64,000 nt of DNA from Anaerolineae bacterium (GCA_034437735.1 DAOTTS010000102.1:16333-80332); one strand, 5' to 3'. Shown: positions 16,599-25,400, counted from the first letter of the stretch. Notes: a model not told the origin generated them from the letters alone. Numbers and translations are program-made.

Positions 16599-16877
16599 TT
16601 ACGATTGGGCAATCAGAACGTTTCGAGCGGTAAGGTCCTCGGCAAAGTTCAAGACATCGGTCTGCACACGGGAAAGATCCGCCTCAAATCGATCGGCGAT
16701 CTCAGTGGCAATTTCAGCAAGGGTGCGTCTCCCATCAGCCAACTGCACCATCTGAGCCCCGGTCGCATTCAAAACCACAAACTTTCCCTTTTCCGGAAGG
16801 ACAACGACCAACTCACCCTCCGTCTCGCGCGTCACAATTTTATCGCTGGTCACTACGACATCATTCAAACTCAGCAT
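16599..16877 (-). CDS. Stand-alone PqqD-family (RiPP recognition element) protein
   Basis: RETEGELVVV...FVVLNATGAQMVQLADGRRTLAEIATEIADRFEADLSRVQTDVLNFAEDL fits the PqqD pattern. ATG 16877 overlaps the end of the upstream kinase gene. Confidence 0.85.
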   Translation of the reverse strand: MLSLNDVVVTSDKIVTRETEGELVVVLPEKGKFVVLNATGAQMVQLADGRRTLAEIATEIADRFEADLSRVQTDVLNFAEDLTARNVLIAQS

Positions 16878-17682
16878 CCATCGCCTCCCAAAAACTTGCA
16901 TCCTTACGGAATTGAAGCGCATACGCGGGTACGTCGCGCAACACACTTTCCCAACGCGCCATCAACAGTGGAAGCCACTCAGGATCCCCGGATACCACCG
17001 GGGAATTAGCAACCAGTTCAGCCAACGCACGTCCTGGAGGCAACCGGTCGACCGACACCTCGGGAGACTTCACCAGACGCAGCAAAGCTGACAGGGGGGC
17101 GTGCCTTACGTCGCCGCGGCGCTTCCCAAATGGCGTTGCGGCCATCACCCAGCCGGTATCCTCGGGGCGCACCACAACCAAATCGTCATTCAAGACAGGA
17201 TCCGGCGCCGACAATCGCGATGCCGTCGTCTTGCCGCTACCCGAGGTGCCGAAAAACGCGTACCCACGACCGCGATGCAGGACCGCAGCTGTGTGAAAGA
17301 TCAACGCATCTCGCGCAAACGCCTGACAGGTCAGGGCAACTCGCATAAAATATCCCACATCCGCCGCTCTGGCGTCAGGATGAAGGCGTAACTCCGCATA
17401 CCCTTCCTCTGTCGACACATACCCCTCAAAGCCGGGACGATCGAGAACGCACGCACCGGCTCGACATTGGGGGATCGCTTCAAAGAGTGGCCCCTCAGGT
17501 GGGGAGAGATGAGAGGCCGCGCGGATATGCACGGGCCAACAGACCGTATCCGGAGAGGGCTCCCATGAAGCCCAACTGCGCGCGATAATGTCCAACCAAA
17601 CCGGGGGGCAGATTACCCGCACGCCCAACCCGGCCATGCCGAAATCAAACGTCGAATTCAACGCCTCAGGAATGTCTGCCAT
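16861..17682 (-). CDS. HPr-kinase-related P-loop protein (HprK-rel / ScmC-like)
   Basis: HTAAV...AFFGTSGSGKTT (Walker A), LNDDLVVV, ATPFG: the HprK-like C-terminal kinase signature. Confidence 0.8.
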   Translation of the reverse strand: MADIPEALNSTFDFGMAGLGVRVICPPVWLDIIARSWASWEPSPDTVCWPVHIRAASHLSPPEGPLFEAIPQCRAGACVLDRPGFEGYVSTEEGYAELRLHPDARAADVGYFMRVALTCQAFARDALIFHTAAVLHRGRGYAFFGTSGSGKTTASRLSAPDPVLNDDLVVVRPEDTGWVMAATPFGKRRGDVRHAPLSALLRLVKSPEVSVDRLPPGRALAELVANSPVVSGDPEWLPLLMARWESVLRDVPAYALQFRKDASFWEAMDAEFE

Positions 17683-18131
17683 ATAATAAACAGCGCGACA
17701 GCGATGAGCAGCCCCCCCTCAACCCTGACCCAAAGGCGAGGCAGCCCCGCCCGCACCTCTACCGTCTCGGGATAAAGGGTCGTTGTACCATCCAGTTCAA
17801 CCTCTTCGATGCGATAACGGTAGCGCACGCCGGGCCTCACATCTGAGTCCTCAAAGCGGTAGCTCGCTCCCACCATCTCATCCCCCTGCGCCGGTATCAG
17901 GGCCTCGTTAACCTGGGTGAAGTCTTCCTCACCGACAGGCGAACGATAGACGTTGAAGCCGGCTGCACCGACTTCGCTGGCCGTCTCCCACGTAAGCACC
18001 ACAGGCGCCAAATCGGAAACTAACAGCCAAACGCCTCCGAACGCCAACAACGCTGCAAGGGCAGCCCAAAATATCCGACGAGGGGCCCCCCGTTGTGTTG
18101 AAGGCTCACGCTGCATATCTGGTGTCGTCAA
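17658..18131 (-). CDS. Small membrane protein with an FN3-like beta-sandwich between two hydrophobic segments
   Basis: N-terminal TM; LTWETASEVGAAGFNVYRS...YRFED...YRYRIEEV; C-terminal TM plus RR. TTG start inferred from the GGAGGA spacing. Confidence 0.65.
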   Translation of the reverse strand: MTTPDMQREPSTQRGAPRRIFWAALAALLAFGGVWLLVSDLAPVVLTWETASEVGAAGFNVYRSPVGEEDFTQVNEALIPAQGDEMVGASYRFEDSDVRPGVRYRYRIEEVELDGTTTLYPETVEVRAGLPRLWVRVEGGLLIAVALFIIWQTFLRR

Positions 18132-23907: not shown

Positions 23908-23969
23908 CTTCCTTCAATCCTCCATACAGCCTAATGCTTATGTTAATGAACAAATAATACTTTGATTCT

Positions 23970-25400
23970 TCAATCACCAACCGCCACTTCGGCGCCGTAA
24001 GCCAAGAGCGCTTCCACTTCTTTCTCGTTGTGACCTTCCGCATAGACACGCAACACGGGCTCCGTGCCCGAGAGGCGGATCAGCAACCACGCATCATCCG
24101 CCAGCAGATACTTGACCCCATCAATGACCTGAACCTCCACCACTGACTGCCCAGCAAGGTTCGCGGGGGCCATCTCCTGAAGCCGGGTCACCATTTGAGG
24201 TTTCGAGACCGGTCGACCCAGCGGCAGATCCTGCCGGGTGTAATGGGTGGGCCCATACGTCTCCTGAATGTCGCGGATCAAGACGTGGAGAGGTTCACCG
24301 GCATCAGCCATAATCTCCAACAAGAGGAGGCCCATCAGAATGCCATCCCCCTCGGGGATGTGGCCCCGGATCGATATCCCCCCGGACTCCTCCCCCCCGA
24401 TCAAAACATCCCCTTCCAATATGTGTTTGGCGATGTGGTTAAATCCGACCGGGGTCTCGTAGAGGGGTAAATCATAACGTTTGGCCAGGCGATCCACCAT
24501 CCGGGTTGTCGACACGGTCTTAATCACGGCACCCCGCGCGCCCCGAACCTCAACGAGATAACGCAAGACCAGCGTGAAGATATGATGGGGATCCACATAA
24601 TGTCCCTGGGCATCCATCGCCCCAATCCGGTCAGCATCACCGTCCAGGGCCAAGCCGATGTGCGCGTGATGCGCCTGAAGTGCTGCAACTAGTGCCTGTA
24701 AATTATGCTCCGCAGGCTCAGGATGGATACCGCCAAAGCCGGGGTTCATCTCCCCCCGGATCTCATAGAGCGAGCACCGCGTACGGCTTAGCAAGTCGCG
24801 AAAGGCCCCGCGACCCGACCCATACATCGCATCGGCGACGACCCGCAACTCCCCGGTCGACACAGCATCGAGGTCAACCAACGTCGAGAGGTGCTGATAG
24901 TAAGCCCAGGCGGGATCGAACCGGCGGATCAAACCGGCATCCGTCGCCTCGTCGAAAGCCATCAAGTTAGGCCCTCGTGAATCCCGCTGATTGCGGGTCA
25001 ACAACGCCTCAATCTGTTGGGCCTGCTCCGGAAGCACCGATCCCCCGAACGCAGCCTTAAGCTTCAAGCCATTGTACCGGGGGGGGTTGTGGCTCGCGGT
25101 GATCATTACCCCGGCATGCGCCTGTTTCTCGACAATGGCGTAGGAGACAGCAGGGGTAGGTGCATCAGCGCGGGTCAGATGCGCGACGACCCCGTTCCCC
25201 GCCATGACCCGCGCAACCTCCCTCGCATAACGATCGGAAAGAAAACGGGTATCGAACCCGACGACAACCTCCGGTTCTTCTCCATAACATAACTCACGCA
25301 CGTAATCGGCAACCGCCTGCGCGACCACCCGCAAGTTCTCGAAGGTAAACATATCACTGATGACGGCCCGCCATCCATCCGTTCCGAATCTGATCGTCAC
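23970..25400 (-). CDS. Phosphoglucomutase/phosphomannomutase family
   Basis: FGTDGWR, TASHNP (phospho-Ser), DGDADR, GGEESGG, RLSGTEP. Confidence 0.93.
   Translation of the reverse strand: MTIRFGTDGWRAVISDMFTFENLRVVAQAVADYVRELCYGEEPEVVVGFDTRFLSDRYAREVARVMAGNGVVAHLTRADAPTPAVSYAIVEKQAHAGVMITASHNPPRYNGLKLKAAFGGSVLPEQAQQIEALLTRNQRDSRGPNLMAFDEATDAGLIRRFDPAWAYYQHLSTLVDLDAVSTGELRVVADAMYGSGRGAFRDLLSRTRCSLYEIRGEMNPGFGGIHPEPAEHNLQALVAALQAHHAHIGLALDGDADRIGAMDAQGHYVDPHHIFTLVLRYLVEVRGARGAVIKTVSTTRMVDRLAKRYDLPLYETPVGFNHIAKHILEGDVLIGGEESGGISIRGHIPEGDGILMGLLLLEIMADAGEPLHVLIRDIQETYGPTHYTRQDLPLGRPVSKPQMVTRLQEMAPANLAGQSVVEVQVIDGVKYLLADDAWLLIRLSGTEPVLRVYAEGHNEKEVEALLAYGAEVAVGD

Follow-up and report, generated by a model that had tools for sequence, protein, structure and literature searches.

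A conserved FN3-kinase-PqqD module in Anaerolineae, apparently a reduced relative of Chloroflexota peptide cassettes

The stretch of DNA analyzed here (the window), 64,000 nt of a genome assembly of Anaerolineae bacterium (GCA_034437735.1 DAOTTS010000102.1:16333-80332), encodes on its minus strand three small proteins in succession, namely, a membrane protein with a predicted FN3 domain, a ScmC-like P-loop kinase with the predicted fold of HprK and ATP-PEPCK, and a discrete PqqD-type recognition element (RRE) for peptides that are made on ribosomes and modified after translation (RiPPs). The three genes form a conserved, translationally coupled module under purifying selection. The window is most aptly regarded as a reduced member of a Chloroflexota-wide family of peptide systems based on an RRE and an HprK-like kinase, with relatives in Acidobacteriota.

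Conservation and components of the module

The first gene of the module (17658-18131 or 17658-18158, minus strand, with 18131 as the likely start) encodes a protein of 157-166 aa, in which the FN3 domain is flanked by two transmembrane (TM) segments. It is followed on the same strand by the gene of the kinase (16861-17682; 273 aa), that of the PqqD-type RRE (16599-16877; 92 aa from the ATG at 16877) and the housekeeping gene of the threonylcarbamoyl-AMP synthase Sua5/TsaC. All neighboring reading frames overlap, by 25 nt between the FN3 protein and the kinase, by 17 nt between the kinase and PqqD and by 14 nt between PqqD and Sua5.

We collected 99 loci (designated by L-numbers; P-numbers stand for single proteins) with up to 10 kb of flanking sequence and mapped their gene families. 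A scan of genome contigs with the kinase alignment gave at least 10 loci, whereas an FN3-based scan of metagenomes was more productive. Homologs of the kinase fall into 104 clusters and those of the FN3 protein into 129, nearly all of them from metagenome-assembled genomes (MAGs) of Anaerolineae/Chloroflexota and from metagenomes; a library-wide search with the kinase profile retrieved 1,197 clusters (50% identity) at E ≤ 1e-30. The FN3 gene is located directly 5' of the kinase gene, mostly overlapping it, in ~50 distinct loci. Among the loci ascertained through FN3 that have at least 1.3 kb of downstream sequence, this pair is present in 22 of 45 and the full trio in 17, the remainder representing the FN3 domain in other proteins. 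The trio itself, whose conservation the original prediction for this DNA had proposed to check, turned out to be conserved.

The FN3-kinase pair is found in 26 long loci, 12 of which make up a Sua5-linked clade, that of the window, and 14 lie outside it. In the Sua5-linked clade the trio is kept in 12/12 long loci at 53-81% identity, and these loci share the order trio > Sua5 < RpoD, with Sua5 as the conserved downstream flank. The closest relative among the matches listed (L007, 81% identical) comes from an Anaerolineales MAG contig. Measured against L007, dN/dS is 0.06 for the FN3 protein, 0.09 for the kinase and 0.10 for PqqD, with 0.11 for Sua5; since dS, at ~1.3-1.5, is near saturation, these values are rough.

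The structural model of the FN3 protein (pLDDT 89.9) consists of a helix (residues 12-38), a β-sandwich (44-127), a second helix (132-155) and a short basic C-terminal tail. The Pfam fn3 model gave no match to the protein; its assignment to the FN3 fold, a seven-strand β-sandwich, comes from the model and from Foldseek, which ranked FN3 domains first (Ihog 2ic2, E = 3e-4, TMt 0.65). The predicted topology is an N-terminal TM segment, an extracytoplasmic FN3 domain and a C-terminal TM segment. Homologs have an invariant motif, W-x-T-A-S-E..GFN.YR...EEVE. Two proteins among the best 150 of the 1,197 kinase clusters, P0347 (439 aa) and P0437 (420 aa), are fusions with the order TM-FN3-TM-linker-ScmC-like kinase, which supports a membrane-tethered FN3-kinase complex. 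The original prediction had considered the FN3 protein as either a substrate or an export/anchoring component. Its constant position directly upstream of the kinase and the two fusions indicate that it is a genuine partner of the kinase. As a substrate it is unlikely, because its cytoplasmic segments are short and unconserved and should serve poorly as a target of the RRE or the kinase; there is also no sorting motif before the C-terminal TM segment.

The kinase model is of still higher quality (pLDDT 96.2). Foldseek aligned it with ATP-PEPCK over both domains (E = 8e-9, that is, ~1e-8; TMq 0.55-0.61) and, with partial coverage, with HprK/P (1knx, E = 5e-6, TMq 0.33). Searching PDB by sequence with the kinase profile yielded only weak P-loop/PEPCK matches, so the fold had to be placed by structure prediction. 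Matches to NCBIfam models are weak as well (ScmC, 24.2 bits with a cutoff of 125; HprK_rel_B, 19.5 bits), and the precomputed Pfam family of the protein is PF27840, 'ScmC'. The Pfam HprK domains do not match and there is no N-terminal HprK domain, so the protein does not belong to the bona fide HPr kinase/phosphorylases, which have the Hpr_kinase N and C domains. Across 73 homologs H130, the P-loop G145-x-S-G-x-G-K151-T153 and D166-D167 are invariant, and we take His...GxSGxGK[T/S]...DD to be the catalytic constellation common to HprK/P and PEPCK. On the strength of the fold matches and the invariant His, P-loop and Asp-Asp, the 273-aa protein can be assigned with high confidence to kinases of the HprK/ATP-PEPCK fold, in agreement with its earlier description as HprK-like. 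It shares with HprK/P and ATP-PEPCK the P-loop fold and the catalytic motifs, but is about half the size of PEPCK and is encoded together with an RRE and a membrane protein rather than with phosphotransferase system or gluconeogenesis genes.

The third protein matches PF05402 (E = 6e-15), and its matches in PDB are PqqD (3g2b) and the lasso RRE TbiB1. Weaker matches include lasso B1 models (34.7 bits with a cutoff of 70 and 29 bits with a cutoff of 80), ScmD (29.3 bits, cutoff 100) and GeoRSP PqqD models. The ATG at 16877 is its true start codon, in keeping with its relatives. The longer open reading frame (ORF), 16599-16946, scores 46.3 bits with TIGR03859, the equivalog specific for pyrroloquinoline quinone (PQQ) biosynthesis, just above the cutoff of 46, so annotation pipelines may call the gene a PQQ biosynthesis protein. 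However, the locus is not one for PQQ biosynthesis: Pfam and NCBIfam scans found no pqqA, B, C or E in the window. The RRE core, ELVVVLP..GKF.VLN.TGA, is common to the window PqqD and to those PqqDs of relatives that are encoded next to putative precursor peptides.

Peptide cassettes in relatives and known systems

Long loci outside the Sua5-linked clade contain a larger cassette, which encodes the FN3 protein, kinase, PqqD, an extracytoplasmic function (ECF) sigma factor, an anti-sigma factor, a large C25 peptidase, a SipW-type signal peptidase, an FN3-stalk protein and a second C25 peptidase. PqqD is encoded either beside the kinase or after the SipW-type peptidase. Among the 14 long loci of this set, C25 genes are present in ten and ECF sigma genes in eight. 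The SipW-type peptidase, found in eight related loci, has a score at the threshold of the archaeal-type signal peptidase I model. Alignments of the C25 proteins with the model of PorU, the sortase of the type IX secretion system (T9SS), span 600-730 residues (243-301 bits, cutoff 420), and there are two such proteins per cassette (L006:10809-12920 and 14784-17771, both minus strand; L003:12943-15867 and 17343-19322; L097:10365-13013 and 15106-17298). To our knowledge, no T9SS occurs in Chloroflexota. The FN3-stalk protein, of ~310 aa and encoded beside C25, has a signal peptide, the same FN3 domain as the kinase partner, a Pro/Thr-rich stalk, a C-terminal TM segment and a basic tail, and looks like a sorting substrate. 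The same FN3-like domain also forms the ectodomain of the cassette anti-sigma factor. As a side observation, full cassettes are flanked by large M23/Big_7 proteins encoded on the opposite strand (L097:3054-6896, L098:1-2757, L099:2691-6554), which may be coincidence.

Gaps of the cassettes near the kinase or PqqD harbor short precursor-like ORFs with a common N-terminus in 12 loci (L003:11175-11450; L006:18007-18192, minus strand; L010:10852-11058; L011:6267-6467; L012:10643-10864; L042:2058-2210; L048:11703-11924; L051:12672-12854; L053:6122-6310; L061:2638-2730; L063:11927-12022; L067:1900-2097). In an alignment of eleven such ORFs, Y, P, L-E and A-G are invariant; the precursors of complete cassettes comprise 40-70 aa. 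The precursor profile retrieved 671 protein clusters of ~40-77 aa, none of which has a Pfam match or a functional name. Among the 120 listed of these 671 clusters, the leader Y..P.[IV]..E..LE..AG is present in 119, and the residue after AG is always Ser or Thr, usually followed by Pro; the core after the leader comprises 13-25 aa and is rich in Pro, Leu, Asp and Gly. The precursor ORFs always lie within cassettes carrying the kinase, PqqD and C25 peptidases. Retrieval starting from the peptide led to the same picture, with the cassette present in 3/3 loci (L097-L099, precursor-like ORFs at 10001-10147). An acidobacterial relative (L015, 3704-12010) has the order SipW-type peptidase > ScmC-like kinase > PqqD > radical SAM/SPASM enzyme > three Cys-rich peptides > C25-fn3 protein (1501 aa) > ECF sigma factor, and its tandem Cys-rich peptides carry the same YxKPxI leader.

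No precursor was found in the window by a regular expression, by a six-frame search with the profile hidden Markov model (best E = 5.4, antisense to the phosphohexomutase gene) or when 40 small intergenic ORFs were tested for conservation. Across the 64 kb, scanning ~50 ORFs with Pfam and NCBIfam detected no RiPP maturase, radical SAM/SPASM enzyme or lasso enzyme, the sole radical SAM gene being RlmN-like (7616-8656). The kinase and PqqD are thus orphaned, without a precursor or maturase within 64 kb, and the failure of the original prediction to recognize a radical SAM/SPASM maturase, lasso enzyme or precursor nearby is borne out for all ORFs scanned.

Judged by analogy, the linear polyphosphorylated peptide (LPP) system of Bacillota is the closest known counterpart of the Chloroflexota cassettes. 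LPP clusters encode the SipW-like signal peptidase LppS, LppB as a discrete RRE, the HprK-like kinase LppK, the NTP transferase LppN and LppD, a pump resembling MsbA (Popov et al. 2026, Nat Commun, PMC13381572). The leader of the precursor LppA reads YxxPxVLxHQxIxFETxxS, LppB is required to present the peptide to the peptidase, and LppK puts several phosphates on the core Ser3 (PMC13381572). The family was reported as confined to Bacillota, and its clusters are embedded in capsule loci (PMC13381572). The window shares with LPP clusters the discrete PqqD-type RRE and the HprK-like kinase (the latter identified by fold and motif), encoded with the 17-nt overlap, but has no precursor, SipW-type signal peptidase I, NTP transferase or MsbA-like exporter. 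As four of the six LPP features are missing, it should not be filed as an LPP cluster. The resemblance is closer for the cassettes, with their SipW-type peptidase, YxxPx[V/I] leader followed by Ser/Thr and, in some loci, a gene of the NTP_transf_5 family; furthermore, both families are located in or beside polysaccharide loci. Unlike LPP clusters, the Chloroflexota family has the TM-FN3-TM partner of the kinase, two PorU-like C25 proteins, the FN3-stalk protein and the ECF sigma/anti-sigma pair, and its leader/core consensus is LE..AG[S/T]P followed by a Pro/Leu/Asp-rich core. No MsbA-like gene was seen in the cores of related cassettes.

Discrete lasso RREs bind YxxPx[L/V/I] as their leader motif. 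In lasso clusters of the paeninodin/pseudomycoidin type, an HprK-homologous kinase phosphorylates Ser of the precursor recruited by the RRE, sugars can be added to this phosphate by a nucleotidyltransferase, and some paeninodin-type clusters include a sulfotransferase gene (PMC8498205). Kinase/RRE pairs of this type do modify peptides in both lasso (PMC8498205) and LPP (PMC13381572) clusters, a point in favor of the original prediction. Neither the window nor the related cassettes, however, encode a lasso cyclase, B2 protease or ABC exporter, and the set that defines lasso clusters, a B1 RRE with a transglutaminase-type B2 protease and an Asn synthetase-like C cyclase, is absent. SynChlorMet (SCM) systems resemble the window in the adjacency of ScmC-like and PqqD-like genes, the best named relatives being TIGR04249 (ScmC) and TIGR04248 (ScmD), and L015, with its radical SAM/SPASM enzyme and three Cys-rich peptides, has what is expected of an SCM-like system. 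The window itself does not qualify as SCM, as the scores are far under the equivalog cutoffs and radical SAM/SPASM partners, such as ScmE/ScmF of SCM, are missing from both the window and the Chloroflexota cassettes. We found no description in the literature of the Chloroflexota variant with kinase, RRE, FN3 and C25 proteins.

The upstream glycan genes and the rest of the window

The module belongs to a run of ten co-oriented minus-strand genes (25400 -> 15482) with short spacing and a single promoter-like site at the 5' end. This strong sigma-70-like site (25545-25518, minus strand; TTGACA-16-TATGAT, 11/12 matches, a consensus match only) is located in a 253-nt gap 5' of the first gene. The nine genes named by the original prediction were all found on the minus strand and in the order it gave; Sua5 (15482-16612; TIGR00057, 194.6 bits with a cutoff of 123; Sua5_yciO_yrdC and Sua5_C domains) is the tenth and was absent from that list. 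The gaps from the first gene through the FN3 gene are 62, 9, 58, 36, 76 and 41 nt, and no convincing terminator was found inside the ten-gene run. The upstream glycan genes are probably co-transcribed with the FN3/kinase/PqqD module.

The first gene encodes a phosphohexomutase of the PGM/PMM/GlmM family (23970-25400), a context gene of glycan islands, with all four PGM_PMM domains and Arch_GlmM as the top NCBIfam match (299 bits, under cutoff). Then follows the bifunctional Sat-CysC (22180-23907; NF004040, 836 bits with a cutoff of 669), a sulfate adenylyltransferase/adenylyl sulfate (APS) kinase for the synthesis of 3'-phosphoadenylyl sulfate (PAPS) with ATP-sulfurylase, APS_kinase and PUA_2 domains. 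The next protein is a small, cytoplasmic, PAPS-dependent sulfotransferase of 200 aa (21568-22170; PF13469 Sulfotransfer_3, E = 1.7e-12) that has a PAPS-binding-type motif, PRSGTS, at its N-terminus. The fourth gene (20295-21509) encodes a GalK-family GHMP sugar-1-kinase with GHMP_kinases_N and C domains and a galactokinase signature; galactokinase models score ~180 bits, under their cutoffs, and the top PDB match is galactokinase 1pie. The label 'GalAK-like' can therefore be upheld only as far as the galactokinase family. The two proteins described as short-chain dehydrogenase/reductase (SDR) epimerases are both extended SDRs. The first, however, is UDP-glucuronate decarboxylase-like (UXS/ArnA type; 19257-20258), matching human UXS1 (4lk3, 194 bits) and then ArnA in PDB, and only the second is epimerase-like (18200-19180). 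Its PDB matches, 5u4q (274 bits), 6zl6/6zla (194 bits) and MoeE5, point to a UDP-glucuronate 4-epimerase, 6zl6 presumably being the UDP-GlcA 4-epimerase. No glycosyltransferase, flippase, polymerase or UDP-glucose dehydrogenase was detected among the operon genes by Pfam and NCBIfam scans. Judged from these sequence matches, the operon would provide PAPS, nucleotide-sugar conversions and one sulfotransferase with an unassigned acceptor. On the plus strand, a 634-aa ORF antisense to sat-cysC (21541-23445) is a shadow ORF rather than a gene; other long antisense ORFs are present in this high-GC window.

The position upstream of the module is variable. In the Sua5-linked clade, glycan genes directly precede the module in 12/12 long loci, but in ten of the 12 the sulfation genes are replaced by an exopolysaccharide (EPS) island with Wzy_C and Wzz, usually accompanied by NTP_transf_5, a family found in 9/26 long loci overall. 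Outside the clade, EPS genes occur in 3/14 long loci and sulfation genes in 0/14. Conversely, the sulfation operon occurs with an intact FN3 gene abutting Sua5, but without kinase or PqqD, in five sister loci (L024, L026, L028, L032 and L036); the order, exemplified by L026:1208-8412, is phosphohexomutase > Sat-CysC > (sulfotransferase) > SDR > GHMP kinase > FN3 > Sua5. The locus thus resembles a surface-glycan island of variable content, delimited by a conserved FN3-kinase-PqqD-Sua5 flank. The swapping of neighbors and the kinase-less sulfation loci suggest that the sulfation genes are interchangeable cargo rather than the specific partner of the module, the PAPS/sulfotransferase/UDP-uronate genes being one of at least two glycan islands that can occupy this position. 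Linkage of PqqD and the kinase to sugar and sulfate genes in other genomes, set beforehand as a test of the original prediction, largely fails. In L007, a Wzz/GNVR/bacterial tyrosine kinase (BY-kinase) gene (L007:3666-5347) lies between the second SDR and the FN3 gene, where the window has 41 nt; it is split into ORFs of 473 aa and 88 aa, the second ending in a Tyr cluster, and may therefore be frameshifted.

The other genes of the 64 kb have housekeeping and signaling functions; they include RpoD, a two-component pair, SSB, an M23 peptidase, an amidase, a GAF histidine kinase, mevalonate genes, RNase Y and RecX. The M23 peptidase (656 aa) and the amidase (Amidase_3) are encoded 2 kb upstream of the operon (27316-30053, minus strand). 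Further upstream is a hybrid histidine kinase of 1685 aa with four GAF, one PAS and two receiver domains (31407-36464, minus strand), flanked by response regulators, namely, a stand-alone receiver downstream (31027-31404) and a receiver-GGDEF protein upstream (36499-37407). A DUF4388 protein adjoins a small Ras/Arf-like GTPase with ATP_bind_1/Ras matches (41367-42767, minus strand), an arrangement resembling MglA/MglB; beside this pair, on its minus-strand downstream side, are a V4R-domain protein and an alpha/beta hydrolase (39820-41243). Genes for HMG-CoA reductase, a protein resembling HMG-CoA synthase and a thiolase follow each other at 45217-49088, which suggests a mevalonate pathway module. 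A TPR-repeat protein of 1550 aa is encoded at 2608-7260 (minus strand).

Readings of the module and their meaning

Given its intact state and the purifying selection on it, the trio most likely continues to act on a YxxP-leader peptide encoded elsewhere. The following scenario, built on analogy with known systems, has in our estimate about an even chance of being right: the trio would comprise a membrane-tethered kinase and an RRE adaptor acting on a peptide from another place in the genome, a location that we assume. The FN3 protein would hold the cytoplasmic kinase at the membrane; the RRE, by analogy with LppB and LppK, would bind the YxxP-type leader and hand the peptide to the kinase; and the kinase, as homology and the LPP analogy suggest, would phosphorylate the core Ser/Thr right after AG. 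In the Anaerolineales clade only the three-gene module would have been left at the locus, fixed between Sua5 and the variable glycan island. Several observations weigh against this scenario. No precursor, C25 or SipW-type peptidase is present near the trio in the 12 long Sua5-clade loci, which makes the trans-encoded peptide an assumption. The FN3 gene has been kept beside glycan genes after the loss of the kinase and PqqD in the five sister loci, which hints at a glycan-related role of the FN3 protein, and the module directly follows glycan genes in every locus of the Sua5-linked clade, so there may be a functional tie to the glycan. In addition, the fusions P0347 and P0437 could be frameshift artefacts of overlapping genes, and PEPCK, the best structural match of the kinase, is a small-molecule kinase.

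The original prediction suggested that the kinase and RRE cooperate with the operon's PAPS, sulfotransferase and UDP-uronate genes, either in phospho-, glyco- or sulfo-modification of a surface protein or peptide or in making a sulfated uronic-acid glycan, with the FN3 protein as substrate or anchor. The layout speaks for it, with all genes on one strand behind one promoter-like site, short gaps and no terminator, and so does the same arrangement in L007, together with the constant position of the module after glycan genes in the Sua5-linked clade. NTP_transf_5 proteins, of the LppN/PsmN type that glycosylates phosphopeptides, are encoded in the nine long loci mentioned above; likewise, LPP clusters lie in capsule loci and a sulfotransferase is possible in paeninodin-type clusters (PMC8498205). 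Nevertheless, sulfation genes occur in just two (the window and L007) of the 26 long loci that contain the pair, the five sister loci combine the sulfation operon and the FN3 gene without kinase or PqqD, and the distant cassettes mostly lack sugar genes. The missing glycosyltransferase, flippase and polymerase, as well as the short, unconserved cytoplasmic segments of the FN3 protein, also argue against it. A specific coupling to the sulfation and uronic-acid genes thus appears unlikely, and the EPS islands, the kinase-less loci and the mostly sugar-free cassettes speak against this part of the original prediction. A looser association with glycan loci does recur, also in Bacillota LPP clusters, which leaves room for the surface-glycan part of the idea.

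Similarly doubtful, in our view, is a receptor-like pair in which the FN3 protein outside the cell and the kinase inside would regulate the envelope or EPS, while PqqD would serve as protein adaptor in this clade and RiPP peptides would play no part. Membrane adaptor/cytoplasmic kinase pairs (Wzc; CapA/CapB type) occur in capsule and EPS loci. By analogy, the module also has a two-TM protein with an outside domain followed by a cytoplasmic P-loop kinase, sits at the end of a polysaccharide locus and occurs in fused and split forms; the domain, however, is FN3 rather than PCP, the kinase has the HprK/PEPCK rather than the BY-kinase fold, and there is no Tyr cluster. A genuine Wzz/BY-kinase adjoins the module in L007 and L006, and the module directly follows Wzz or a BY-kinase in most sister loci as well as in L007. 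The TM-FN3-TM topology, the TM-FN3-TM-kinase fusions, the use of the same FN3 domain as the ectodomain of the cassette anti-sigma factor and the absence of precursors and peptidases from the Sua5-linked clade all fit a receptor. On the other hand, PqqD retains the full RRE core common to precursor-adjacent PqqDs, no phosphorylation target is evident in the locus, and loss of the kinase and PqqD can leave the glycan genes in place. Moreover, we know of no RRE that works without a peptide ligand in such an adaptor role.

A wider scenario, less probable again than these two, would unite cassettes and orphan modules in an undescribed envelope system of Chloroflexota and some Acidobacteriota. The FN3-tethered HprK-fold kinase and the RRE would make an LPP-like phosphopeptide, which the SipW-type peptidase would release. 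The PorU-like C25 'sortases' would then process the peptide or transpeptidate it onto the surface glycan or the FN3-stalk protein, and it might be sensed outside the cell by the FN3 domain common to the anti-sigma factor and the membrane partner of the kinase. Orphan modules at the edge of glycan loci would link the signal or decoration provided by the peptide with the kind of glycan on the cell surface, here a sulfated one. Least probable is that the trio is a dead remnant of a degraded peptide cassette carried along between the glycan island and the essential Sua5, although the precursor, peptidases, NTP transferase and sigma/anti-sigma factors were not found in the window and five sister loci have lost the kinase and PqqD altogether. 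Against a remnant speak the intact reading frames, the invariant catalytic and RRE motifs, the dN/dS of 0.06-0.10 at dS ~1.3-1.5 and the retention of the trio, at 53-81% identity, throughout the 12 long loci of the clade.

For annotation, the locus holds two warnings, namely, that the small gene is easily misnamed as the PqqD of PQQ biosynthesis and that the whole operon is easily misread as one pathway. Until now, pairs of an RRE and an HprK-like kinase had been linked with lasso peptides and, from 2026 on, with the LPP family of Bacillota. The module of the window leads to a large unannotated counterpart in Chloroflexota, with 1,197 kinase clusters and 671 precursor clusters, which is set apart from described RiPP systems by the obligate FN3 partner of the kinase, the two PorU-like C25 proteins and the ECF sigma/anti-sigma pair with the same FN3 domain. 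Within this family, the window represents a stripped-down state, consisting of the kinase, the RRE and the membrane partner, that is kept by selection at the edge of a variable glycan locus, and it raises again the question left by the authors of the LPP study, namely, why peptide systems sit in polysaccharide loci.

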